DNA of 53,846 bases from Escherichia phage mEp554: sequence record PP180005; one strand, given 5' to 3'. The notes below the pieces were generated by a model. It was given only the letters and a program-made list of their open reading frames with translations, was not told the origin of the DNA and ran no database searches. The position numbers and the translations under genes were made by a program. Positions 3,266 to 29,409 of this stretch are shown piece after piece. The stretch's first letter is position 1, and each line of letters starts with the position of its first letter.

Positions 3266-3819
3266 AATTCCAACCCCGTTTCGCCGTTAAGTTTTTCGAT
3301 CTCAAATATTGGTTTATCCGGTAGCAGGCCGTTATTTTTCCGGTATTCGTTCAGGCGTCTGTCAAAGTCAAAAGCCAAATCATTAGCGTGACCGAAGCGC
3401 CCAGGTTTAAACAATGAGTAAAAATTTACCCCGTGTCGGTTAGGGTCAACGCAAAGCGTTTCATCAATAACCATTAAACGCAGAGTACGAGATAGATAAT
3501 TCCACGGAATACCCGTTTCCGCGCTAATGTCGCGCATACGCTTTTTAACGCTGTAGTCACCAAATAACGCAGCGACGCGCTCGCGACGTTCAGCATATAA
3601 CTGTTTAATACGATAACCAAGCAGTCGGCGGCGGCGTCCAAAACATGTATACACGCGCTCGACGATGCCGTTTTTTATTAAGTGTTTAATTGTCTCAGGC
3701 ATGATTCCATCCTTATCATACCCGACCAATAATCCTGTTTTCTGGCGTAACTGGTGCATTGTTGCGATGCCATCAAGTTCAAGGATATTGATAATTTTTG
3801 TTTCAATTTCAGCGCTCAT
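3262..3819 (-). CDS. Hypothetical protein with probable N-terminal winged-helix (185 aa)
   Basis: ORF track. Lies downstream of the DnaB-like gene in the same operon. No confident family assignment. Confidence 0.6.
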   Translation of the reverse strand: MSAEIETKIINILELDGIATMHQLRQKTGLLVGYDKDGIMPETIKHLIKNGIVERVYTCFGRRRRLLGYRIKQLYAERRERVAALFGDYSVKKRMRDISAETGIPWNYLSRTLRLMVIDETLCVDPNRHGVNFYSLFKPGRFGHANDLAFDFDRRLNEYRKNNGLLPDKPIFEIEKLNGETGLEL

Positions 3820-3895
3820 TTTTAGCCTCGTTTAAAACGCGATAACAGCCACCAGAAAGCGGTAAACTTTCCGGCAAGCTGTTTGCTAATATTGA

Positions 3896-5311
3896 TTAAA
3901 AAGATGCGTTATTCTGATTGTTTCGTTGGTTAAAACGGCTTGTGCGATGATTCATTGACTGAATGCACGCTGCGGCTGCGCGCGCCTGGTCGCATGGCAA
4001 GATATTACCGTTGTCATCAAACCGCTGGTAAACAGTTCCAGACTTACCATGACGGTTTTTTGACACAATAATTTCCATATATTCGCGGGCAACAGACTGT
4101 TCATCGTAATATCCATCTCGGTAAACCATGATTATCCTGTCGGCATCTTGCTCAAGGTTGCCCGAATCACGAAGATCAGAATTGTTAGGTCGCTTGTTCG
4201 GTCGTTCCTCAACACGGCGGGACAATTGCGCCAGCGCCAACACTGGTACACGCAATTCTTTAGCCATCATCTTTAACGACCACGACAATTGCCCTACGGC
4301 GAGATCATGACGTTCGGCCTTAGCCAGCTTCATTAACCCGATATAGTCAATCATTACCATACCCAGGTTCGGGTGATCCTGCTTCATCCGTTCCGTTGTT
4401 GCGCGTATTTCCTCAACCGTTAACTGCGACGCGTCAACGATCCACACATCAAGATTAGCAAGTGCGCTCATACCCTGGCCGACATGCGCCCACCCCTCAT
4501 CATCAAGTTTTACAGGATTGCGCAGGCAGTCGGTTGATAAATTACCAGCGCCCGCGATAGCGCGCTCAGTCATCTGATCGAGTGACATTTCAAGCGTGAA
4601 GAACAAAACGCCAACCCGCTGATCCTTGCTGCCAGGGTAAGGTCGCTCAGCGGCAGCGCGGGCAATTGTCAGCGCCAACGCAGATTTACCAGACCCAGGG
4701 CGTCCGGCGAGAAGTACCAAATCAGTAGCGTTAATGCCGCCCAACATTTCGTCGAGTGGTTCTATACCTGTTTTGATGTTGTCAGAGTTGACACCGCATT
4801 CCATGCGCTTGCTTAAAACGTCAGTATATTCCTGTACCGCATCGCGCAACAGAACAGGAATGATCTTGTCTTTCGTTACCTTTAATTTTGAATACCGGGA
4901 ATCAAAATCTTTCATCGTCTCTTTGACGACCTCAAGCGTCCCAGTCTCCAGTTTGTAGCGCATATCGTCGATTAGTTCCAACATCTGCCGCCGCTGGTGC
5001 TCTTCACGTAGTAACTGTGCGTATCCCTTCAGGTTGGCAGCAGACGGGCACGAACGCGCCGTTTGCATTAGCGGTACGAAATTTTCATTACCAATCTCAT
5101 CACCGACCAGCAACGCATCTATGAGATTTCTGTTTCTGGCTTGTGCCCGGATAACTTCAAACGCACGTTTATAGAGCGGGATCGTGAACACTTCAGGATC
5201 AAGTGTGGCGAGAACATCTTGCGCGTTAGGAGTTAGGCCACCTAACAGCAGCCCGCCGATAACTGACGCCTCACGTTCCTGCCGTAGTGAGTTTATTTGC
5301 TCAGTTACCAT
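3896..5311 (-). CDS. dnaB: Replicative DNA helicase, DnaB family
   Basis: 471 aa. Walker A GRPGSGKSALAL, DnaB-type C-terminal motifs (MIDYIGLM, LAQLSR, RDSG..EQDAD) and an N-terminal DnaB-like domain. Confidence 0.9.
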   Translation of the reverse strand: MVTEQINSLRQEREASVIGGLLLGGLTPNAQDVLATLDPEVFTIPLYKRAFEVIRAQARNRNLIDALLVGDEIGNENFVPLMQTARSCPSAANLKGYAQLLREEHQRRQMLELIDDMRYKLETGTLEVVKETMKDFDSRYSKLKVTKDKIIPVLLRDAVQEYTDVLSKRMECGVNSDNIKTGIEPLDEMLGGINATDLVLLAGRPGSGKSALALTIARAAAERPYPGSKDQRVGVLFFTLEMSLDQMTERAIAGAGNLSTDCLRNPVKLDDEGWAHVGQGMSALANLDVWIVDASQLTVEEIRATTERMKQDHPNLGMVMIDYIGLMKLAKAERHDLAVGQLSWSLKMMAKELRVPVLALAQLSRRVEERPNKRPNNSDLRDSGNLEQDADRIIMVYRDGYYDEQSVAREYMEIIVSKNRHGKSGTVYQRFDDNGNILPCDQARAAAACIQSMNHRTSRFNQRNNQNNASF

Positions 5312-5329: not shown

Positions 5330-6448
5330 TTACAAAATGGAAAATTCAGGGTAATAAACAAAGCGCCCGATCTCACCATGATCCGGGCTGTAAATTATTA
5401 CCGCCGCCAGGCGACGCGACCGCCAGCCGCCATTAGTTGAATAGGCATCTTTACCAGCTAACGTGCCGTGATACTCAACAACGCCCAACGATGATTCAAT
5501 CATCCGTTGATGATGCCAGTGCCCGCAGTGGGCGTAAACCGCCGCAGACTTGCCGAAATCCTCGCGCCAGTCAGCTACGCAAGCAGCCAATAAGTTTTCC
5601 GGCTTTTTGATAGTGTGCCCGTGGTGGTAAGCAAGGAATGTTTTCCCGTACTGCGTGTGGTGGACGATAGTAGGTGACACATCAACCGTCACGCGCGGTT
5701 CATCTTCGTAAAAAGCCGCCAGCGCCGCACGTAGCCAAATCATACCAGACTGGTCATGATTCCCTGATAACACCTGGATTTCCACATCCTTATGATTTAG
5801 CAACATCTTTCCTACAGCCCGCCGGACAGACCGGATCGCCACATAAACAAGTTTTGCGTAGCGCGAATCGCAATCAAGAACGTGATTGCTTGATGGCGTC
5901 ACTGGTAACAATCCGTCAGTGTGAAGCAGGTCGCCCCCGAGAAGAAGAACCGCTTTTTCACTCATAGGGGCAGCGCCAACTGCGTAGTCAAAGAAGTCAT
6001 TTAACACGCGTTCAGCGATCCCAGTGTCGTAGCTCTCGCCGCATTCAGCTTTATGAGCAAGCGCCCCGATGTGCAGGTCAAACACCGGATAAAGTGCCAG
6101 GCTTTTTTGAAAATCAATTTCAGGCACTGGCACGGCCTCCGCGCGTGGTATTTCTTCCGTGAATGCGTCGCGGGCCGCTTCCATTAACTGTTCCATTTCG
6201 TCGCGGTCACGGGCTGTTTTAATCCAGCGCATGATCACATTGCCATCCTTATCGACTAGCAACGACTCGCCATTAACACCAAAACCAGGAGCGCGGCGCG
6301 TTGATAATAAACCGCGTTTTGCCAGTTTTGCTCCCAGGCGTTCGACATTGCGTTTAGACATGCCGTACTTTTCAGCGATCTGTTTGTACGTTAATCCGTT
6401 GTTATATTCAGCGATCAATTGCTCATCACTGATTTTTCTTTGCGACAT
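5330..6448 (-). CDS. HTH domain fused to a calcineurin-like metallophosphoesterase
   Basis: Start at ATG 6448 (SD GGAGGG). N-terminal HTH (LTYKQIAEKYGMSKRNVERL). Phosphoesterase motifs DLHIG, GGDLLHTDG, SGNHDQ, HHGH, GHWHH. Confidence 0.7.
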   Translation of the reverse strand: MSQRKISDEQLIAEYNNGLTYKQIAEKYGMSKRNVERLGAKLAKRGLLSTRRAPGFGVNGESLLVDKDGNVIMRWIKTARDRDEMEQLMEAARDAFTEEIPRAEAVPVPEIDFQKSLALYPVFDLHIGALAHKAECGESYDTGIAERVLNDFFDYAVGAAPMSEKAVLLLGGDLLHTDGLLPVTPSSNHVLDCDSRYAKLVYVAIRSVRRAVGKMLLNHKDVEIQVLSGNHDQSGMIWLRAALAAFYEDEPRVTVDVSPTIVHHTQYGKTFLAYHHGHTIKKPENLLAACVADWREDFGKSAAVYAHCGHWHHQRMIESSLGVVEYHGTLAGKDAYSTNGGWRSRRLAAVIIYSPDHGEIGRFVYYPEFSIL

Positions 6449-9153: not shown

Positions 9154-9801
9154 ATGAAAACAAAATGGTATGACTTAGCAAAACAACTCATGCGGGCGCA
9201 GGGTATGAGTCAGGATTCATTGGCAGATCTCATGGGGATCACAAAAGGCGGCTTGTCACACTGGCTTAACGGTCGCCGCGAGCCAAATCTTGAAGACATT
9301 GCGCGGATCATGCGGGCGCTTGGGCGTCGGCAGTTCACTGTCACACATGATGGAATGGTCATTGATGATTCTGTTTCTAACACGTTGCCGGGAGCGCCTC
9401 CTCGTGATTTAGGCAGTTACCCGGTTGTTGACTGGAAGGATGTAGCAAACAATATGGAAGACATAAGCAGATCAACATTGCCACACGTTACGACTAGCGT
9501 TATTTGTTCAGATGATAGTTACTGGCTGGTTGCTAAAGGCGAATCAATGAACGCGCCGCAAGGATTGAGTATACCAGCGGGGACGATGATACTTGTCGAT
9601 CCGCACGCGCCAGCTATTGACGGAAAACTGGTTATAGCCCAACTGGAGGAGGGGCAGATACCGACGTTTAAACAGTTGATTATTGATGGAGGCAGAAAAC
9701 TTTTGCGTTCACTGAATCCGTTGTATCCGCCGATCCCTATGAATCCAGAATCTAAAATCATAGGCGTGGTAGTGGATGCGAAGATCGTAAACCTGCCATA
9801 A
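9154..9801 (+). CDS. cI: CI-like repressor, XRE HTH plus S24 (LexA-like) autopeptidase domain
   Basis: 215 aa. HTH MSQDSLADLMGITKGGLSHWLNGRREP. C-terminal S24 signature (VAKGESM...FKQL). Confidence 0.9.
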   Translation: MKTKWYDLAKQLMRAQGMSQDSLADLMGITKGGLSHWLNGRREPNLEDIARIMRALGRRQFTVTHDGMVIDDSVSNTLPGAPPRDLGSYPVVDWKDVANNMEDISRSTLPHVTTSVICSDDSYWLVAKGESMNAPQGLSIPAGTMILVDPHAPAIDGKLVIAQLEEGQIPTFKQLIIDGGRKLLRSLNPLYPPIPMNPESKIIGVVVDAKIVNLP

Positions 9802-9807
9802 AACATT

Positions 9808-9832
9808 AGCCGCCTGGTGGCGGCTTTTCTTT
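9808..9832 (+). terminator. Rho-independent terminator after the repressor gene
   Basis: AGCCGCC-TGGT-GGCGGCT followed by TTTTCTTT. Confidence 0.8.
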
Positions 9833-9912
9833 GCCATAAAAACACCAAAACGTAAACAGAAAACGTTATTTATTATTTAAATATCAATGACATATAAAAT
9901 ATTTTAAAAAAG

Positions 9913-9954
9913 TATACAAAATGGATTGACTAGGTGTTTTACGGGGCGTATATT
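9913..9954 (+). promoter_or_regulatory. Rightward early promoter (-35 TTGACT 9926-9931, 17 nt, -10 TATATT 9949-9954) abutted by the 12-mer TATACAAAATGG (9913-9924)
   Basis: Near-consensus sigma70 hexamers. AT-rich UP-like region upstream. Confidence 0.7.
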
Positions 9955-9995
9955 GCGAGTCAAAGGAGGAAGCAAGGCAGGGAAAGAAGGTTACT

Positions 9996-10033
9996 TGCTC
10001 TTTAACAATCTGGTCAGCCGCTGGAAGTGCGGC
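9996..10033 (+). promoter_or_regulatory. nut site: boxA TGCTCTTTAACAA (9996-10008) plus boxB-like hairpin GCCGC-TGGAAGT-GCGGC (10017-10033)
   Basis: boxA is identical to the E. coli rrn boxA consensus as I recall it. It lies in the leader between the promoter and the N-like gene. Confidence 0.7.
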
Positions 10034-10088
10034 AATTAACGAAGATGATTTTTATTAAGTATCATCAAGGATATAAGGAGATCAGATC

Positions 10089-10379
10089 ATGACAGTTACA
10101 ATCATGTATGGCAAATGTGATAGCAAAATAAACGCCAGGGAACGCAGAAGAATAAAAAGAGAAAACGAAAGAAAATCATCACCTGCAATTAATAAAACGG
10201 ACAATGTGGATAAAGCCATTCGCTTTGCAAACGATGAAAGATGCAAACCCAATGGCATTAAAGAACGTCGCAAAGGAGCAGTAAAATGGTATACGGAAAA
10301 TGAAAGCGGCAACTACTACCACGCAACGCAACCACGCCAACTAGGGGAGAAACCACTGGATAAAGTCCGTTACCATTAA
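10089..10379 (+). CDS. N-like antitermination protein candidate (arginine-rich motif)
   Basis: 96 aa. SD AAGGAG. Residues 14-29 (INARERRRIKRENERK) resemble lambdoid N ARMs. First gene after the nut site. Confidence 0.55.
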   Translation: MTVTIMYGKCDSKINARERRRIKRENERKSSPAINKTDNVDKAIRFANDERCKPNGIKERRKGAVKWYTENESGNYYHATQPRQLGEKPLDKVRYH

Positions 10380-10409
10380 TACATATCGTAAACAATCGGA
10401 GGTGACGTT

Positions 10410-10532
10410 ATGGTTATTAAGGCGCTTCAATTCAAACTTGCGGTAGCGGAAATGCTTCACGATGCCGAAATGTGGAGCGCCGCAAATAAAGCCTTGTACA
10501 TAGTGTTAACAGCTAAGGAGATCAAAGAGTGA
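10410..10532 (+). CDS. 40-aa micro-ORF (MVIKALQFKLAVAEMLHDAEMWSAANKALYIVLTAKEIKE)
   Basis: SD GGAGGTG. Its stop overlaps the GTG start of erf (GTGA). Confidence 0.5.
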   Translation: MVIKALQFKLAVAEMLHDAEMWSAANKALYIVLTAKEIKE

Positions 10533-11170
10533 AAACAGAATTACACAAAAAGCTGTGGACGATTCAACAAACGCTGAACGCACCGAAAAATCAGCGCAAT
10601 AATTTCGGTGGGTACAATTACAGGTCGGCGGAGGATATTTTGGAGGCGGTTAAGCCACTTCTTCAAAATATAACGCTGACTGTTAGCGATGAAATCGTCC
10701 TGATCGGCAATCGCTATTATGTGAAAGCCACTGCAACACTAAGCGACGGAGAAGATGAAATTGCGGTAACTGCTTACGCCAGGGAAGAAGAAAGCAAGAA
10801 GGGAATGGACGCAAGCCAGTTAACTGGCGCGACATCAAGTTATGCGCGTAAATACGCGTTGAACGGCTTGTTCTGCATTGATGACGCAAAAGATCCTGAT
10901 ACTGATGCTTACGCGAAACAGACAAATCAACAGCCGCGACAGCAGAAAAACACGCCGAAACAACAACCACAGCAGCAGAAAGCGCCGCCAAATCCTGATG
11001 AAGTATTAGCACGTTTCTGTGATGCGGCAGCGAAAGCGCCGGACGCTAACAAGTTGCGCGAGATATTCGGGAAGTGCTGGAAGATACTTCCTAAAGATTC
11101 AGAGCAGCAACAGAAAGCTAAAGACGTTTATGATATTCGCTTAAAAGAGCTTAACGGGGAGATCGGTTAA
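10529..11170 (+). CDS. erf: ERF-family single-strand annealing protein
   Basis: 213 aa, GTG start. ERF signature (FGGYNYRSAEDILEAVKPLL...GATSSYARKYALNGLF). Confidence 0.85.
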   Translation: MKTELHKKLWTIQQTLNAPKNQRNNFGGYNYRSAEDILEAVKPLLQNITLTVSDEIVLIGNRYYVKATATLSDGEDEIAVTAYAREEESKKGMDASQLTGATSSYARKYALNGLFCIDDAKDPDTDAYAKQTNQQPRQQKNTPKQQPQQQKAPPNPDEVLARFCDAAAKAPDANKLREIFGKCWKILPKDSEQQQKAKDVYDIRLKELNGEIG

Positions 11171-13667: not shown

Positions 13668-14288
13668 ATGAAAGACATCAAAACGGCTTATTCACTAGGC
13701 AGCGATGGCATGTTAATCACTCGCTACACTGAAGATGCAAGTTTTCATGAAGTGGAAACGAAGGACTATCACGAAGTGCTAAAGGATATGGAAGCTGGAG
13801 CGTATGACGCAGATTTGAACCTGGCGTTACAGGTTGCTGATATTGTGATGGAAGCGTCGATGCGCGACTATGTGTCTTTGGATAATGAAGAAAAAACGGC
13901 TGTAGCTCGTTATGTCTTCTGCCTCACTTTTGTGAAACGCATGGAAGAAGAATATGGTCGCGTGCCAGTGCCGGAAGAGCTTGATCCGCTGGCGTTCGGC
14001 AGTGCTGTTATCTTCCCGTTAGACGAAAACCATATGGGTAGCGCTGCACTGTATTCTGTGCGCGGCGTAATGAAGAAAATATTTGAGGCCAAAGCGCTAC
14101 ATAAGTGCATTGATGAAGGGCACAACGAAGAAGACGTAAGAGCGATCATGCCGCTGTTTTATGGCGAAATGGTTGGTATTAACATGCGTGCAAATGATTT
14201 AGGCGTGCAGGCGGCTATATCTATGCTTAATGAAGCACGAAAAATGTCACAGCCAATGCCTGAACCTGAAAAGCGCGTACTTCATTAA
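13668..14288 (+). CDS. Hypothetical protein (206 aa)
   Basis: SD AAGGA upstream. No family recognised. Confidence 0.6.
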   Translation: MKDIKTAYSLGSDGMLITRYTEDASFHEVETKDYHEVLKDMEAGAYDADLNLALQVADIVMEASMRDYVSLDNEEKTAVARYVFCLTFVKRMEEEYGRVPVPEELDPLAFGSAVIFPLDENHMGSAALYSVRGVMKKIFEAKALHKCIDEGHNEEDVRAIMPLFYGEMVGINMRANDLGVQAAISMLNEARKMSQPMPEPEKRVLH

Positions 14289-23972: not shown

Positions 23973-24159
23973 ATGCCTTATTGCTGTGACTGTTTTGCTT
24001 TATATCGCTGGCGCGATCTTGATGTCATGTTTTATTAAGGTTAGTGAGGCTGACCGTTGCGGATTTGAGATCCCTTTTTGGCCTGTATTGGTTTTTCTCG
24101 CTTTCTTTGATGCTACGGTAGTGCAGATCAAACAAGCTATTAAGGAGCGCAAAAAATGA
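23965..24159 (+). CDS. Membrane protein, 2 TM (64 aa)
   Basis: ATG 23965 after GAGGATG. Hydrophobic sequence. Confidence 0.55.
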   Translation: MIECLIAVTVLLYIAGAILMSCFIKVSEADRCGFEIPFWPVLVFLAFFDATVVQIKQAIKERKK

Positions 24160-24338
24160 TTGAAGACGGCATCTATGGTGTAAACCAGATGGAAAACGTT
24201 TTTTACATGGTTGACGGCGATACCGTAACAATCAGCGTAGATGGTGGGGAATACGCAGAGCCATTCTTCAAAACAACAAGGGAAGACATTAAGCGAAGCG
24301 TTGATAAAGGCATACTATTTAAGGTTGGCGAGCTATGA
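24156..24338 (+). CDS. Hypothetical protein (60 aa), tandem paralogue of the next ORF
   Basis: SD AGGAG. IEDGIY...VFYMVDGDTVTI. Confidence 0.55.
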   Translation: MIEDGIYGVNQMENVFYMVDGDTVTISVDGGEYAEPFFKTTREDIKRSVDKGILFKVGEL

Positions 24339-24511
24339 ACGAGATCGAAGACGGCATCTATTTGCACATGTTATTTAACATCGCCTATTTGGTTAAAGGT
24401 GATAAGGTGATGATTCAGAATCCAGAAAGTAAATGCTGGGAATCAAGCATGATGGATCGTTGGCACATGCAAATGCTACTTGATAATAACCTGATATACA
24501 GAAAGCAGTAA
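24335..24511 (+). CDS. Hypothetical protein (58 aa), tandem paralogue of the previous ORF
   Basis: ATGA coupling. IEDGIY...IAYLVKGDKVMI. 15-nt identity gaagacggcatctat with the upstream copy. Confidence 0.5.
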   Translation: MNEIEDGIYLHMLFNIAYLVKGDKVMIQNPESKCWESSMMDRWHMQMLLDNNLIYRKQ

Positions 24512-24519
24512 AGCCGTAT

Positions 24520-24561
24520 TTGTGGCTCGAAAACAAACGGATTAAAATATTACCTAACAAT
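24520..24561 (+). promoter_or_regulatory. Candidate late promoter (pR-prime-like): -35 TTGTGG (24520-24525), 17 nt, -10 TAAAAT (24543-24548), -10-like AACAAT at about +1 to +6 (24556-24561)
   Basis: Hexamers read directly. The downstream -10-like element resembles the sigma-dependent pause element of lambdoid late promoters (recalled). Confidence 0.5.
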
Positions 24562-24575
24562 GCGAAACTGTAACT

Positions 24576-24598
24576 ACCCGGCCCCGTGCCGGGTTTTT
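24576..24598 (+). terminator. Rho-independent terminator immediately upstream of the holin (tR-prime-like)
   Basis: ACCCGGC-CCCGT-GCCGGGT followed by TTTT. Confidence 0.75.
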
Positions 24599-24618
24599 GC
24601 TTTGTTGGAGGTAAATCT

Positions 24619-24819
24619 ATGTTCGACAGAATACGGGAGGCGTGTGCGTATGTGACTGGTGCAGTAACCGCTTTTTTCGGTGCTATAACCATCAATGACG
24701 TCGCTGTTTTCGTTGGTATCTTATCAACCATAGGCACATTTGCCGTTAACTATTACTTTAAATCACAGGAGAACAAGCGAGCGCAAGAGGAACACGACGC
24801 GCGAATGGGGAATAAGTAA
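24619..24819 (+). CDS. Holin (class II / pinholin-like, 2 TM)
   Basis: 66 aa from ATG 24619 (SD GGAGG). Two TM segments and a charged C-terminus. Directly precedes a SAR endolysin. Confidence 0.75.
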   Translation: MFDRIREACAYVTGAVTAFFGAITINDVAVFVGILSTIGTFAVNYYFKSQENKRAQEEHDARMGNK

Positions 24820-25311
24820 ATGATTAGCCAATCGCTGAAAAACAAGATTGTTGCTGCGGCGGCTGGTGGTGCAATCGCTATTGCGGCGGTGATGATTAAG
24901 CCATTAGAGGGCGTGGAATACGATCCATATCGTGATGTTGTTGGCGTATGGACTGTTTGCTACGGTAACACCGGAAAAGACATCATGCTTGGGAAGACTT
25001 ACACGCAATCAGAATGCGATGCTTTGCTGAACAAAGATCTACACAAAACCGCAAAAGCGATTGACCCATATATCAAAGTCGAAATATCAGATTTTACCCG
25101 CGCTGCACTTTATTCCTTCGCCTATAACGTAGGCGCAACCAACTTCAAAACATCAACCTTATTAAAGCTACTCAATGACGGCAAGAAATCGGAAGCGTGC
25201 GCACAGCTTAAACGCTGGGTATACGCTGGCGGTAGGAAGTGGCAAGGCCTGGTAAACCGCCGCGATGTTGAATATGCCGTTTGCGAATGGGGGGAAACGT
25301 GGACAAGGTGA
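24820..25311 (+). CDS. SAR endolysin, GH24 lysozyme family
   Basis: 163 aa. N-terminal weakly hydrophobic SAR ([17 protein letters not shown]). Catalytic E-X8-D-X5-T ([16 protein letters not shown]). Confidence 0.9.
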
Positions 25312-25769
25312 AGGCGTTAATTATCGCCGCTGTTGTTTGCATTATTGCCAGCCTTACCGCCGTAACGTGCCATTACCAGAGTGAGGCGACAAGGTTACAG
25401 GAAGAGTTAACGACCACGCAAGGCGCACTGAAAACAGCAAGTAACACTATTCAGCAGATGAAGGAGCGAAACGCCGAACTGTCAAAACTTGATAAGAGGT
25501 ATCACGATGAGATTAAAGCTATCAGATCTGACATTGCCGATCTGCGCACTGGTATTGATAACGGCACTATCAGGCTGCGCGTCAACGCAATACCCGTGCG
25601 AGTGTCCGACCCCGCAGGAACCGCCAGCGCCATTAATGGAGCCTCCTGTAGACTCACTCCCGACGCTGAATCGGCTTATCTATCCCTCAGAGAACAACTA
25701 AAAGAGAAAGACGCGAAGATAACCGCGCTTCAGGGATACATCAAAACGCAGTGCTTACGCAAAGAATAA
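25308..25769 (+). CDS. i-spanin (Rz-like)
   Basis: GTG 25308 overlaps the endolysin stop (the ORF is open from 25281, so the start is uncertain). N-terminal TM then coiled coil. Confidence 0.75.
25507..25701 (+). CDS. o-spanin (Rz1-like lipoprotein) embedded in the +1 frame of Rz
   Basis: ATG 25507 (SD GAGGT). Lipobox LSGC. Pro-rich mature part. Confidence 0.75.
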   Translation: MRLKLSDLTLPICALVLITALSGCASTQYPCECPTPQEPPAPLMEPPVDSLPTLNRLIYPSENN

Positions 25770-26048
25770 CAGTGCGTTGACGTGTCGCCGTTTCTGCCAG
25801 CCAGCCATAACCGGGCCAATCCTTCCCGCGAGCGACGGCAGAATAGTCAAAAACACGTAATGCCGGATCAACAGTCCCATTAACAGGTCAGGCGCTACCT
25901 GGGTAGAAGAAAGCGCCATCCACCAATTTTATAAAATTCTGTAAACGGTACTCACACAGCGCCGTTTTCAGTGTTTTATAGCTGTTTTCACTCCCTGCGG
26001 TGTCCAGTTTTGCGGGGGTTATATTTTTCAGGATAGAGGAATATTCTG

Positions 26049-26606
26049 ATGGCTAAGGCTAAAGGCATTAAGTTGCCTCAATTCAAAGTCCCGCTCTTTG
26101 AGCATACAACTGTTTTCTTTTGCCCGACCCGCGAGATGTTCTATGAGTTTTGCGAAAAGGCAGGGATCCCAATCGAACCTGATTTCGAACTGGCAGGAGG
26201 ATTAACGCTTACTTGCACTGGTGAGAAAGGCGGTAACTTCTACGTGATCGCAGTATTCGACAATGAGTTAGGAACGCTGGTACATGAAGCGGCCCATACT
26301 ACATTTCACGTTTTAAGTGATGTAGGCGTCGTGGCGACCACTGATCCCAGCCATCCGGCAAACGAGACTTATGCTTACATGGTAGGCCGTATCTTTGATG
26401 CTTTCTTCCCCATCCTGGCAGAATCAAATGAAGCACAGGTGGCAGCAATGCAGGCAGAAGAAATAACCGAACGTCTTAGCGCACAAGAGGCAAGGGATAT
26501 TGCTAATGAGGCAAAAGACAAGCAAAAGCCAGCTAAGAAAGGCAAACGTAAGCCTAAAGCAAAAGAGGCGCTTGTGCCGCGTGTTATGAGCTTTAAACGG
26601 GGGTGA
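26049..26606 (+). CDS. HExxH-motif protein (putative small zinc metallopeptidase) with a Lys-rich tail
   Basis: 185 aa. SD GAGGA. LVHEAAHTTFH, then ETYAY 25 residues later. C-terminal KDKQKPAKKGKRKPKAK. Confidence 0.6.
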   Translation: MAKAKGIKLPQFKVPLFEHTTVFFCPTREMFYEFCEKAGIPIEPDFELAGGLTLTCTGEKGGNFYVIAVFDNELGTLVHEAAHTTFHVLSDVGVVATTDPSHPANETYAYMVGRIFDAFFPILAESNEAQVAAMQAEEITERLSAQEARDIANEAKDKQKPAKKGKRKPKAKEALVPRVMSFKRG

Positions 26607-26608
26607 TT

Positions 26609-26704
26609 ATGGGTATCCTTCTGGTATGTGTATTTATTGCTTTAGTTGCGATGGAGGTATTGCTCCCCATTTGGGCGGCGACCTGGATGATGCAAGATGA
26701 TTGA
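26609..26704 (+). CDS. Micro-ORF 1 of 10: MGILLVCVFIALVAMEVLLPIWAATWMMQDD (31 aa, TM)
   Basis: SD GGGGGTGA. Starts 2 nt after the HExxH gene stop. Confidence 0.55.
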   Translation: MGILLVCVFIALVAMEVLLPIWAATWMMQDD

Positions 26705-26771
26705 CCCGCTCATTATCCTTTCTGCCTGCGTCGCTGTATGGCTGGCGATCATGATATTCATTGAAAGCTAA
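26697..26771 (+). CDS. Micro-ORF 2: MIDPLIILSACVAVWLAIMIFIES (24 aa, TM)
   Basis: 8-nt overlap with micro-ORF 1. Weak SD. Confidence 0.45.
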   Translation: MIDPLIILSACVAVWLAIMIFIES

Positions 26772-26781
26772 AGGCGTTCAC

Positions 26782-26856
26782 ATGAATATTTACGATCTAA
26801 TCTGGTGGTTGTTGGTCGCCGTCATTATCTATTTCTGGTGGAAGAATGTTGTATAG
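26782..26856 (+). CDS. Micro-ORF 3: MNIYDLIWWLLVAVIIYFWWKNVV (24 aa, TM)
   Basis: SD AAAGG 7 nt upstream. Confidence 0.5.
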   Translation: MNIYDLIWWLLVAVIIYFWWKNVV

Positions 26857-26864
26857 GTGACGGC

Positions 26865-26963
26865 ATGGATATATTCGAATTACTGGCGATTATGTTCGGA
26901 ATGATGTTAAGCATTGTCGCCATAATTATCATCATCGGCCTTGTTATGGGTAGCATCAAATGA
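26865..26963 (+). CDS. Micro-ORF 4: MDIFELLAIMFGMMLSIVAIIIIIGLVMGSIK (32 aa, TM)
   Basis: SD GGTGA 4 nt upstream. Confidence 0.55.
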   Translation: MDIFELLAIMFGMMLSIVAIIIIIGLVMGSIK

Positions 26964-27040
26964 ACGCATACGAAATGCTATTGCTGGTGGCTGTTATTAC
27001 AGTTATCGCCGTAGATTTTTATCGAGGGTTGAAAAGATGA
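26960..27040 (+). CDS. Micro-ORF 5: MNAYEMLLLVAVITVIAVDFYRGLKR (26 aa, TM)
   Basis: ATGA overlap with micro-ORF 4. Confidence 0.5.
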   Translation: MNAYEMLLLVAVITVIAVDFYRGLKR

Positions 27041-27108
27041 GAGAAGCAGACTTCTTTTGCATGATTATAGTGATCGTCATCGTTGCCGTGCTTTTAAGCG
27101 TTAACTGA
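27037..27108 (+). CDS. Micro-ORF 6: MREADFFCMIIVIVIVAVLLSVN (23 aa, TM)
   Basis: ATGA overlap with micro-ORF 5. GAGGG 8 nt upstream. Confidence 0.5.
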   Translation: MREADFFCMIIVIVIVAVLLSVN

Positions 27109-27125
27109 ATCGCAGGAGGTTAAAA

Positions 27126-27194
27126 ATGAAATTGCTTGATTTCTTTTTCCTGATTGTTGCGATTGTTCTTACCATGACCGCGCTGACTCAATAG
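27126..27194 (+). CDS. Micro-ORF 7: MKLLDFFFLIVAIVLTMTALTQ (22 aa, TM)
   Basis: Consensus SD AGGAGG 6 nt upstream. Confidence 0.6.
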   Translation: MKLLDFFFLIVAIVLTMTALTQ

Positions 27195-27202
27195 GTGAAT
27201 AT

Positions 27203-27277
27203 ATGGAAACTATCGAAGCAGTATTATTCGTGTTCATCGCTGCGGTTGTTATTGTTGGGTTTATTATCAATGTCTGA
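27203..27277 (+). CDS. Micro-ORF 8: METIEAVLFVFIAAVVIVGFIINV (24 aa, TM)
   Basis: SD GGTGA 4 nt upstream. Confidence 0.55.
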   Translation: METIEAVLFVFIAAVVIVGFIINV

Positions 27278-27338
27278 CGTCGATTTCTTAATCATAGCTA
27301 TAAGTTCGCTGTTAGTCGTTATCGTTTTCTTCGCATAA
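27270..27338 (+). CDS. Micro-ORF 9: MSDVDFLIIAISSLLVVIVFFA (22 aa, TM)
   Basis: 8-nt overlap with micro-ORF 8. Confidence 0.45.
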   Translation: MSDVDFLIIAISSLLVVIVFFA

Positions 27339-27348
27339 AGGGTAAGCA

Positions 27349-27432
27349 ATGAAAGAGCTATTCGACTGGTTGGAAGTATTAACATACTGCGCAAGTTTTG
27401 TGGCTTGCGTATATATCATCAACAAATATTAA
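27349..27432 (+). CDS. Micro-ORF 10: MKELFDWLEVLTYCASFVACVYIINKY (27 aa, TM)
   Basis: SD AAGGGTAAG. Ends 10 nt before terS. Confidence 0.5.
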   Translation: MKELFDWLEVLTYCASFVACVYIINKY

Positions 27433-27442
27433 GAGGTGAAAT

Positions 27443-27928
27443 ATGGCCCGCACGAAAAAGGCAAAGGCTGAAGACAAAAAGCCAGCAGCCAAAAAGACGG
27501 GCCGTCCACATGGCTATTCAGAAGAAAAGGCATTGGAGATCTGCGAGCTTGTGTCGGACGGCGAAAGTATTAACAAGATTTCGAAGATGCCTGGTATGCC
27601 TGCACGTTCAACAATCCTCAAGTGGTTCAGAGATGTGCCGGAGTTTTCGGACATGTATATGCGCGCGAAGGAGATCGGATTCGAGGTGTTAGCTGATGAG
27701 ATCATCGACCTTGCTGACGCGCCAGAGAACATCAAAAAGGAAGAACTGAACAGACACCATTTGATGATTGAAACTCGTAAATGGCTATTAGCAAAACTGC
27801 AACCGCGTAAGTATGGCGAGCGCGTCACACAGGAGATCGTCGGCAACAAGGAAGAGGCGCCCGTCCAGGTGGAAGTCACGAAAGAAGAGATCGCCCGCAT
27901 CGTCCAGGAAGTAGAAGACGAGGTGTGA
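27443..27928 (+). CDS. terS: Terminase small subunit
   Basis: 161 aa. SD GAGGTG. HTH region and the RKWLLAKLQPRKYGER motif typical of this small-terminase family. Precedes the large subunit. Confidence 0.8.
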   Translation: MARTKKAKAEDKKPAAKKTGRPHGYSEEKALEICELVSDGESINKISKMPGMPARSTILKWFRDVPEFSDMYMRAKEIGFEVLADEIIDLADAPENIKKEELNRHHLMIETRKWLLAKLQPRKYGERVTQEIVGNKEEAPVQVEVTKEEIARIVQEVEDEV

Positions 27929-27930
27929 TT

Positions 27931-29409
27931 ATGCTGACAATCAGAGAACGAGTCATTCAGTCCAAATGTGAAAACGATGGCCTGTTTTTCAATCGCTACT
28001 TCTATAAGCAAGCGAACGGAACGAAGATGTTAATCTCAGGCCATCATTTAGCCATCCGTGATGCACTGCAACGCGTTGTCAATGGTGAGATAACCCGACT
28101 CATCATCAACATTCCCCCAGGGTACGGTAAGACAATGATCGCTACCATCAATATGATGGCACGGTCCCTCGCAATAAATCCCCGCACAAGATTCCTTCAC
28201 GTTTCCTATTCCAATAACCTTGCGTTACTCAATTCATCGACTGTAAGAAACATGATCTGCACGCCTGAATATCAGGCAATGTGGCCCATGAAGATCCGCA
28301 ATGATGCCAACAGTAAATCTATGTGGTGGACAGAATACGGTGGCGGCGTGTACGCGACCTCATCGCTGGGCCAGGTAACTGGGTTCCGTGCCGGGTATAT
28401 GGAACCAGGATTTAACGGCGCGTTAATCATCGACGACCCATTGAAACCTGCTGACGCTTATTCTGACGTGGTGAGAAAGCAGGTAAACACCAACTATAAC
28501 GACACGCTTGCGTCACGTCTGGCAGTGCAAACGACGCCTGTTATCGTCATTATGCAGCGCATCCACTACGATGATTTGTCCGGCTACCTGTTACGCGGTG
28601 GGAGTGGGGAAAAGTGGTATCACCTGAACCTGCCAGTGAAGATTGACAACAGCGTTGACTATTGGGATTTGTACCCTGAAAACGAGTTCGCCATCCCTAT
28701 TGCTCACAACCTGCCTGATGGCTGGCTGTGGCCCAGGAAGCACAATGACGAACATGAAGCAGGACTGAAAGCACACAGGCGGTCATTTGAGGCCCAGTAC
28801 ATGCAGCGCCCGCGTAAATTCGACGAAGAGGGTGCATTGTGGACTGAAGCCATGATAACCGCAGCGCACCGGATGCAGATAACGCAGGACAAGATTCGCA
28901 CAGTGGTAGCCATCGACCCGGCGACAACATCATCGGAAGAATCGGACGAAACGGGGATCGTTGCATGTTCCGCTTACGGTGGCGGCAAGAATGCTCAGTA
29001 TTCTGTTGATGGTGACTACTCAGGACGCATGTCCCCTAATGCCTGGGCGCAAGCAGCAATGAGCGCATACGACATTCATGAGGCTGACGCGATGGTTATC
29101 GAAACCAACCAGGGCGGTGAAATGGCAGAGGCCACGCTACGCAATGCAGGATTCAAAGGCCGCATTGTTAAGGTACACGCAAGCAAGGGTAAATTCGCCC
29201 GCGCCGAACCAATATCTGCACTGTATGCACAAGGAAGGGTGGCCCACACTGGTGAACTGTACACGCTGGAAAATCAAATGATGGAATACGTGCCAGCTAC
29301 CGCCAAAAAATCCCCTGACCGTATGGACGCAATGGTATGGGGCATTACCGAACTGAGCCAGCCACAGGCGATGGGCCTCATGTTACCGAAGCGCCTGCGC
29401 GGATTTTAA
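27931..29409 (+). CDS. terL: Terminase large subunit
   Basis: ATG 27931 (SD GAGGTG; the ORF track starts at GTG 27925). Walker A-like PPGYGKT, Walker B-like LIIDDP, C-terminal nuclease region. Confidence 0.85.
   Translation: MLTIRERVIQSKCENDGLFFNRYFYKQANGTKMLISGHHLAIRDALQRVVNGEITRLIINIPPGYGKTMIATINMMARSLAINPRTRFLHVSYSNNLALLNSSTVRNMICTPEYQAMWPMKIRNDANSKSMWWTEYGGGVYATSSLGQVTGFRAGYMEPGFNGALIIDDPLKPADAYSDVVRKQVNTNYNDTLASRLAVQTTPVIVIMQRIHYDDLSGYLLRGGSGEKWYHLNLPVKIDNSVDYWDLYPENEFAIPIAHNLPDGWLWPRKHNDEHEAGLKAHRRSFEAQYMQRPRKFDEEGALWTEAMITAAHRMQITQDKIRTVVAIDPATTSSEESDETGIVACSAYGGGKNAQYSVDGDYSGRMSPNAWAQAAMSAYDIHEADAMVIETNQGGEMAEATLRNAGFKGRIVKVHASKGKFARAEPISALYAQGRVAHTGELYTLENQMMEYVPATAKKSPDRMDAMVWGITELSQPQAMGLMLPKRLRGF

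Follow-up and report, generated by a model that had tools for sequence, protein, structure and literature searches.

A compact HExxH protein encoded between the lysis and terminase genes of Escherichia phage mEp554: a probable stand-alone zinc metallopeptidase

What does a small protein with an HExxH motif do between the lysis and the packaging genes of a coliphage? The question is raised by the 53,846-nucleotide (nt) sequence of Escherichia phage mEp554 (record PP180005; the window, as used below, is this whole stretch), in which an open reading frame (ORF) at 26049-26606 stands between the Rz/Rz1 spanin genes and an array of hydrophobic micro-ORFs that precedes the small terminase gene, terS. 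An earlier note on this DNA had described the 185-amino acid (aa) ORF, its HExxH, the ETYAY downstream of it, the basic tail and the 279-bp gap after Rz/Rz1, all of them correctly by the sequence, and had considered a compact zincin that processes the products of the micro-ORFs, one that acts on the host envelope or on defence proteins, and a non-catalytic look-alike. Judging from the conservation of its residues across a divergent family and from its predicted fold, we hold with fair confidence that this protein is an active, soluble, cytoplasmic metallopeptidase. The favoured reading, namely a soluble, cytoplasmic, stand-alone zinc metallopeptidase of the minimal-gluzincin type, has in our estimate a probability of about 0.7. 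The features of the gene and its product on which the argument turns are the following:

26049-26606, + strand: the HExxH-protein gene, with ATG start, 185 codons and TGA at 26604-26606 (ORF list and sequence)
26036-26039, + strand: GAGG, resembling a Shine-Dalgarno sequence, 9 nt ahead of the ATG (read off the sequence)
26049-26420, + strand: catalytic-type domain, residues 1-124 (AlphaFold2 models; region matching PHROG 1365)
26283-26297, + strand: HEAAH, with H79, E80 and H83 (conservation across family representatives)
26364-26378, + strand: E106-T-Y-A-Y110, in the helix after the HExxH helix; the E106 codon is 26364-26366
26421-26510, + strand: acidic helical spacer, residues 125-154, net charge -6 (model helix; charge count)
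26511-26603, + strand: basic Lys/Pro-rich tail, residues 155-185, net charge +11, ending ...EALVPRVMSFKRG (charge count)
26599-26611, + strand: junction GGGGG-TGA-TT-ATG between the HExxH gene and micro-ORF 1 (sequence)

The motif proper is H79-E80-A-A-H83, set within LVHEAAHTTFH (residues 77-87), and the domain that bears it has a net charge of -7 (residues 1-124). The protein matches PHROG 1365, annotated as of 'unknown function', with an E-value of 6.2e-30 (residues 1-131 against profile positions 3-124 of 127); scans against Pfam and NCBIfam assigned it to no family. When residues 1-130 were searched exhaustively with HMMER against 1.8 billion cluster representatives, 152 of these were recovered at E <= 0.001, nearly all of them stand-alone proteins of 110-140 residues and typically about 120-130 aa long; stand-alone members of the family range mostly from 110 to 190 aa. 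Across 139 family representatives clustered at 50% identity, which are about 25-40% identical to the query, G51, H79, H83 and E106 are invariant (139/139), E80 is kept in 138, Y110 in 134 and N105 in 83, while the GVFD strand ahead of the motif and T76-L77 are strongly conserved. The HEAAH residues are invariant in two family alignments, and of 155 sequences checked, the only ones without the HExxH were two fragments (truncated or frameshifted), a repetitive sequence that is a false positive, and a variant with HKAAH. The earlier note had named a lack of conservation of the HExxH among homologues as the outcome that would tell against a zincin; the motif is clearly conserved. An HExxH followed by (N)E some 20 residues on is the signature of the thermolysin-type gluzincins; in this family the spacing from the second His to the Glu is 19-20 residues in most members and 23 in the subfamily of the query, which has a four-residue insert. 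The suggestion that a Glu downstream serves as a third ligand has also held up: with its presence in 139/139 representatives and its place in the helix after the HExxH helix, E106 is the likely residue.

Selection at the level of close relatives points the same way. The phage of the window belongs to the mEpimmI group of coliphages: over 25700-27500, a region of 1.8 kb, it shares 97% identity with Escherichia phage mEp010 and 90-95% with mEp044, mEp013, mEp021, mEp515 and MagusPhagus. The group comprises Nus-dependent, non-lambdoid siphoviruses of the human gut (PMC11893012). Orthologues of the HExxH protein, such as mEp010_78 (98.9% identical to the query) and mEp021_49, are annotated as 'hypothetical protein', and so is the single chromosomal copy found in 33 of 5,426 complete E. 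coli genomes. The ratio of non-synonymous to synonymous substitution rates (dN/dS), computed from 36 unique orthologues, comes to 0.06 in residues 1-128, 0.16 in the spacer and 0.11 in the basic tail; synonymous differences are frequent (proportion pS of about 0.33-0.41) and non-synonymous ones rare. The whole ORF, its tail included, is thus under purifying selection, with the run of G in the last codons, which may serve ribosome binding for the next ORF, as a possible additional constraint on the codons of the tail. With motif residues that vary hardly or not at all in 139 representatives and a low dN/dS, the occurrence of the motif goes beyond chance.

The predicted structure agrees with this picture. 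With a 145-sequence family alignment as input, AlphaFold2 modelled the full-length protein at a mean predicted local distance difference test score (pLDDT) of 90.7 and a predicted template modelling score (pTM) of 0.78, and the domain alone at a pLDDT of 94.6 and a pTM of 0.88. The models place strands at residues 11-13, 21-25, 51-57 and 63-69 and helices at 28-38, 74-91 (bearing the HExxH) and 103-127 (bearing E106 in its first turn in the domain model), that is, in the order strand-strand-helix-strand-strand-helix(HExxH)-loop-helix(E106); in the full-length model the last helix runs on to residue 158 (104-158, pLDDT above 90). The core of the zincins has been described as a small sheet preceded by one helix and followed by two, which carry the HExxH and the Glu (PMC5512222), and the predicted order of elements is consistent with that core at the level of secondary-structure order. 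A profile search against the sequences of the PDB returned HExxH metallopeptidases as nine of its ten best matches over the strands and the motif, among them myroilysin, the astacin-type BMP1/tolloid and peptidyl-Lys endopeptidase, but at E-values of 0.02 or more; a profile of close homologues matched PDB sequences only at the level of noise (e.g., uridine phosphorylase), and Foldseek found no match of the model in the PDB. We therefore treat the fold evidence as consistent with a zincin rather than as an independent proof of it, and the conservation of residues as the strong argument. Taken with that conservation, the domain model bears out the earlier note's notion of a compact zincin-type protein.

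To which of the named families would such a protein be closest? The nearest known kind is that of the minimal gluzincins, with a thermolysin-type HExxH...(N)E (MEROPS clan MA(E)), a small example of which is PDB 3e11. With SprT, Wss1 and Spartan the family may share a common plan of a small HExxH domain combined with a basic, probably DNA-binding tail; it differs from them in having no zinc-ribbon and an invariant Glu as the third ligand. In Wss1 and Spartan, the third ligand is a His shortly after the HExxH. In the family at hand the corresponding position 87 is His in the query and mostly F, Y or N elsewhere. The query has no match to the Pfam SprT-like family (PF10263) at E <= 10, sub-threshold matches occur in 32 of 145 members (best E 4e-4), and hhalign of the family profile with E. 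coli SprT (YggI), a template consisting of a single sequence, gave a probability of 4%. Membership in the SprT-like family was rejected on the Pfam scores, the unconserved His87 and the invariant Glu. A few members match other HExxH families of Pfam, namely DUF4344, M50B, DA1 and M91. The metallopeptidase domains of polyvalent proteins (Pfam MPTase-PolyVal; e.g., the C-terminal domain of ArdC; Iyer et al. 2017, PMC5512222) also occur in mobile elements but as parts of multidomain polypeptides, whereas the PHROG 1365 protein stands alone; assignment to them (PF18818) was rejected for that reason and because the query has no Pfam match; of the 68 Pfam families listed for 145 members, the 25 with the most matches do not include PF18818.

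Another comparison is with the alpha-ketoglutarate/Fe HExxH enzymes of pathways for peptides made by the ribosome and modified after translation (RiPPs), which have a zincin-like fold and act on short precursor peptides encoded nearby (PMC12636437). The HExxH and the zincin-like fold are common to both; however, we see no evidence of a co-substrate site here, and the PHROG 1365 family usually lacks neighbouring peptide genes. The query has no match at E <= 10 to TIGR04267 (the alpha-ketoglutarate HExxH peptide beta-hydroxylases, IPR026337); weak matches are seen in 14 of 139 members, the best with an E-value of 0.0045. PF18894 (PhageMetallopep) comprises another phage HExxH protein of the same slot, of about 210 aa, and hhalign against a PF18894 protein (again a single-sequence template) gave a probability of 2%, with no homology detectable beyond the motif. 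Six family members have zero matches at E <= 1 in PADLOC-DB. The anti-repressor peptidases of the ImmA/IrrE (M78) type adjoin the gene of their cognate repressor; an anti-repressor of this kind was rejected, there being neither the hidden Markov model (HMM) match nor the adjacency that marks them, and no repressor among the neighbours. A prohead protease was rejected too, because the family occurs in P22-like phages, which to our knowledge do not cleave their own capsid proteins, and lies outside the head gene cluster. The database names of the members are all 'hypothetical protein' except for two labels of metagenomic origin, 'PolyVal Metallopeptidase superfamily domain' and 'SprT-like family protein', and our survey of the literature on hkcC, MPTase-PolyVal and counter-defence by phage HExxH proteins or zinc metalloproteases yielded no paper on the PHROG 1365 family. 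In sum, the kind, a zincin-type peptidase of a mobile element, is already known, and the family is an unnamed, divergent and uncharacterised branch of the zincin-like proteins outside Pfam and NCBIfam.

In the mEpimmI lineage this small domain is elaborated by the spacer and the tail. The tail (AKDKQKPAKKGKRKPKAKEALVPRVMSFKRG) has 13 Lys and Arg against 2 Asp and Glu, is predicted to be disordered (pLDDT 62-78, AlphaFold2) and contains KKGKRKPKAKEALVPRVMSFKRG, which is nearly invariant among the orthologues. The spacer varies in length, with indels in its Ala/Glu/Gln-rich helix giving proteins of 180, 183, 184, 185, 190 and 194 aa. A relative at 56% identity (P0121) likewise has an acidic helix followed by a comparable basic tail, ending ...VPRIARYKRG, and basic extensions at the N or the C terminus occur in about eight other, divergent members. 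Because the tail is under selection and such extensions have arisen at either end in these members, binding to a polyanion is suggested. DNA would be the likeliest polyanion in view of the weak resemblance to SprT-like proteins, the DNA-metabolism genes beside some distant members, the recurrent placement ahead of unrelated terS genes and the Lys/Pro/Ala-rich N-terminal arm of the phage's own terS product (27443-27520, + strand; MARTKKAKAEDKKPAAKKTGRP), the composition of which is like that of the tail. In two related loci (L094 and L095; protein variant P0113) the last 25 or so codons of the HExxH protein are swapped for a different basic ending, and HNH_3 homing-endonuclease genes (3739-4263 and 5563-6000) are present, one between lysozyme and Rz and the other directly after the HExxH gene.

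The setting of the gene bears on when and where the protein would act. Its neighbours in the window are:

25281-25769, + strand: Rz-type spanin gene, the upstream neighbour (Pfam Phage_lysis 2e-24; PHROG 13 1e-41)
25489-25701, + strand: Rz1-like lipoprotein ORF embedded in the Rz gene in the +1 frame (ORF list)
25929-25981, + strand: terminator-like hairpin, U-rich on its 3' side, within the 279-nt gap (RNA folding)
26609-27432, + strand: array of ten hydrophobic micro-ORFs (22-32 aa), the neighbour of the HExxH gene
27443-27928, + strand: Sf6-type small terminase gene (terS), the next conventional gene downstream (Pfam Sf6_terminase 3e-36; PHROG 1482 2e-49)

The gap between Rz and the HExxH gene (25770-26048) is exactly 279 nt long. 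Its hairpin has a folding energy of -18.4 kcal/mol (z -4.7), which none of 200 shuffled sequences equalled, and is flanked by A-rich and U-rich stretches; in mEp021 a terminator, TERM_6, is annotated in the equivalent gap, about 80-110 nt before the start codon of the orthologue. A simple terminator scan did not flag the hairpin, and an Rfam search of 24000-28000 gave no match. The HExxH gene has the late-gene orientation and the phage encodes a Q-type antiterminator, so that expression with the late operon by read-through would be expected. A 54-codon ORF on the - strand of the gap (25755-25919) has no Pfam or PHROG match, and mEp010 annotates a short + strand ORF (a PHANOTATE call) in its place; we find no evidence that either is a gene. 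As to location, the protein has neither a signal peptide nor a membrane segment (its highest 19-residue hydropathy is 0.85), which makes the action on the host envelope that the earlier note had entertained unlikely.

On the downstream side, the HExxH gene ends in TGA-TT and the ATG of micro-ORF 1 follows at 26609. The order holin, lysozyme, Rz, gap, HExxH gene, micro-ORFs, terS, terL (large terminase), portal is found in 47 of 47 related IMG/VR loci, and the 2-nt stop-to-ATG junction, which the earlier note had already seen in this genome, in 46 of them; translational coupling of the HExxH gene to micro-ORF 1 is thus probable on the sequence. The array consists of ten tandem ATG-initiated ORFs of 22-32 codons, joined by overlaps of 4 or 8 nt or spacers of 4-11 nt, each encoding one hydrophobic helix that usually follows an acidic residue near the N terminus. 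The number of micro-ORFs is 3-12 in related phages (loci L009-L055); 48 genomes hold 180 distinct micro-peptides, the peptide of the first slot differs from phage to phage, and a PHROG scan of the ten in the window gave no match. The array gives the impression of a rapidly changing cassette of micro-genes, the stranger object of the two, and the HExxH gene is clearly separate from it.

Related loci outside the close group, which were found with a 12-sequence family alignment, show the domain in a variety of surroundings. In P22-like phages the homologue, known as ST64T orf-129 or phage L Orf129, occupies the interval from the lysis genes to the small terminase gene in about 30 loci, often followed by the decoration gene dec. 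A DUF2560 (PHROG 571) gene is directly upstream in about 32 of 33 P22-like loci (L056-L088; ST64T orf-118, L002 3141-3497), its stop often 3-4 nt from the start of the homologue; a search of the window for this partner found none. A second type of paralogue, 35% identical, lies between ejection gene 16/sieA and mnt/tailspike and is annotated in HK620 as hkcC, 'unknown'. P22 has an intact homologue of 121-125 codons (BK000583 ~13849-14226; L003 2989-3366, + strand) that has no coding sequence (CDS) entry in the reference annotation; it reads HECAH ... ANETYCY, is on the late-gene strand and has sieA and orf59a/mnt as its flanks.

We examined 19 prophages of other species, including Citrobacter, Kluyvera, Pantoea, Mixta, Yersinia, Klebsiella, Serratia, Proteus and Xenorhabdus. 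Recognisable terminase genes lie within about 1.5 kb downstream of the homologue in nine of them, with ORFs that are terminase-like in size and position in four more, and the terS types found downstream of homologues are diverse: Sf6, P22 gp3, Terminase_2 and DUF2280. terS follows the homologue directly in L092, L093, L102, L108 and L114, and in L102, L108 and L114 the next gene begins 3-4 nt past its stop; the gene of P0121 is itself followed after 4 nt by an Sf6-type terS, with no micro-ORF between. No hydrophobic micro-ORFs were found downstream of the homologue in 21 loci outside the mEpimmI group. Other placements are within a tail module ahead of the tape-measure gene (L111, L113), next after a gene for a DNA methylase (L110), beside ParB genes (P0173), and in an early region that also has ERF, SSB and Rha (P0128). 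A prophage of Kluyvera sp. (L100) has a PF18894 gene (4376-5014, E 1e-42) directly after the homologue, followed by a DUF2280 gene and a large ORF, so that two unrelated HExxH proteins stand in tandem ahead of packaging genes. In Ewingella americana (L109, 1660-7003), the homologue and an 89-codon ORF are on the + strand between - strand radical-SAM genes, an arrangement unlike the late operons of phages. The claim that a protein of this kind is not a standard lambdoid gene for the slot is accordingly misleading: the phage is non-lambdoid (PMC11893012), and relatives are regular there in P22-like phages and other prophages of Enterobacterales.

Briefly, we advance the following plausible mechanism. 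By their conservation and the predicted order of the fold, H79, H83 and E106 would hold the metal and E80 would serve as the general base, activating a water molecule that attacks the peptide bond; the substrate cleft would be lined by the strand just ahead of the HExxH helix (YVIAVFD), and Y110, one helical turn past E106 and probably near the metal, is a further active-site candidate. In the mEpimmI lineage, this enzyme of about 125 residues appears to have been extended by the variable acidic helical spacer and the conserved +11 tail, and the latter would tether it to a polyanion, most likely DNA. The target might then be a protein bound to or near DNA, whether of the host, of a defence system or of the phage itself, and the action would come late in the infection, at about the stage of packaging. 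The gene would be transcribed with the late operon through the terminator-like hairpin and translationally coupled to the next gene, the micro-ORFs here and terS in relatives. The recurrence ahead of unrelated terS genes and the repeated emergence of basic tails suggest a nucleic-acid-linked late role, for example in clearing or disabling a DNA-associated protein. The specific proposal of a DNA-tethered accessory protease that removes or disables such a protein late in infection is tentative, and we would put the odds somewhat against it.

Several observations count against this favoured reading of a DNA-tethered, late-acting peptidase. The majority of family members have no basic tail, and tethering to DNA cannot therefore be the general mode of the family. 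The slot collects unrelated accessory genes (Rha, Dec, HNH), for which reason synteny alone proves little and the linkage to terS may mean nothing functional. A scan of the gap for sigma-70-like promoters predicted none. Finally, hydrolase activity is not universal among HExxH proteins with a zincin-like fold (PMC12636437).

The last point leads to an alternative in which the gene and the array form one cassette and the protein is a maturation enzyme for the micro-peptides, either a peptidase or a peptide-modifying oxidase of the alpha-ketoglutarate/Fe type. Such a role would fit the stop-TT-ATG junction in 46 of 47 loci, the weak TIGR04267 matches in 14 of 139 members, the Ewingella homologue between radical-SAM genes, and the existence of zincin-like HExxH enzymes that act on precursor peptides encoded nearby (PMC12636437). 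However, micro-ORFs are absent beside the homologues in the 21 outside loci, the tail-bearing P0121 abuts terS with no array, and the 180 peptides of the 48 genomes, variable from the first slot on, have no common leader- or core-like segment beyond the hydrophobic helix; further, the query lacks a TIGR04267 match even at E 10, its domain has only about 125 residues, and the junction is an ordinary tight late-operon spacing, with the same coupling to terS in L092, L102 and L108. We hence consider the processing of the downstream peptides, as the earlier note had envisaged it, very improbable. A version confined to the mEpimmI lineage, a RiPP-like phage cassette in which the enzyme trims or oxidatively modifies the micro-peptides and the tail brings it to their site of emergence at the membrane or the ribosome, is in our view very unlikely too. 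Nor do we give much credence to the look-alike of the earlier note, a catalytically dead protein of structural or regulatory function that merely keeps the HExxH string. The want of a significant match to curated peptidase families and the weakness of the structural matches would sit well with it, but inactive homologues normally lose such residues, whereas here H79, H83 and E106 are invariant and E80 is kept in 138 of 139 representatives at about 25-40% identity to the query, all four catalytic-type residues being conserved over a very divergent family, and the domain evolves at a dN/dS of 0.06. It is thus highly unlikely.

Somewhat more room has to be left for roles at other times of the phage life cycle, unlikely as these are. 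The Lit protease of prophage e14 offers the model for a protective protease that is made by the lysogen and triggered by a superinfecting phage, in the manner of abortive infection or exclusion. The gene's presence in prophages of many Enterobacterales, the homologue in the immI region of P22 and HK620 beside the superinfection-exclusion gene sieA, and the hairpin that stands between the lysis genes and the HExxH gene would all accord with such a function; against it speak the late-gene orientation everywhere examined, which in P22 is opposite to that of sieA and mnt, the frequent translational coupling to terS, the lack of a promoter-like site in the gap and of any PADLOC defence-model match for six family members. 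Similarly, the protein could be an effector that its tail carries into the capsid with the DNA, to be injected and act early in the next infection, for which its late-operon position beside the packaging genes, the DNA-like affinity expected of the tail, the one homologue labelled 'PolyVal Metallopeptidase superfamily' and the peptidase domains known from packaged or transferred polyvalent proteins (PMC5512222) might be adduced. Mass spectrometry of the mEp021 virion, in contrast, identified 16 structural proteins, and the paper mentions only two with genes away from the main cluster, each of them upstream of the lysis region (PMC11893012); in that phage mEp021_49 is annotated as 'hypothetical' and mEp021_41 as 'virion structural protein'; these data speak weakly against packaging of the HExxH protein. 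Most family members, moreover, are tail-less, and the query has no match to the MPTase-PolyVal HMM. We regard a packaged effector as improbable.

If the protein is active, it would be among the smallest of stand-alone metallopeptidases, at about 125 residues, and would define a family that is present in many temperate phages and prophages of Enterobacterales and nameless in the curated databases. A late role linked to nucleic acids, if true, would amount to a new accessory step of the lytic cycle or a new tactic of counter-defence. The intact copy in P22 that the reference annotation omits makes a cheap genetic test possible in a model system. The HExxH gene also marks the left boundary of the fast-changing array of micro-genes, which is worth a study of its own. 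One related metagenomic phage (L096) encodes, at 9491-10534, a Mu F-like head protein with a match to an intein-splicing domain.

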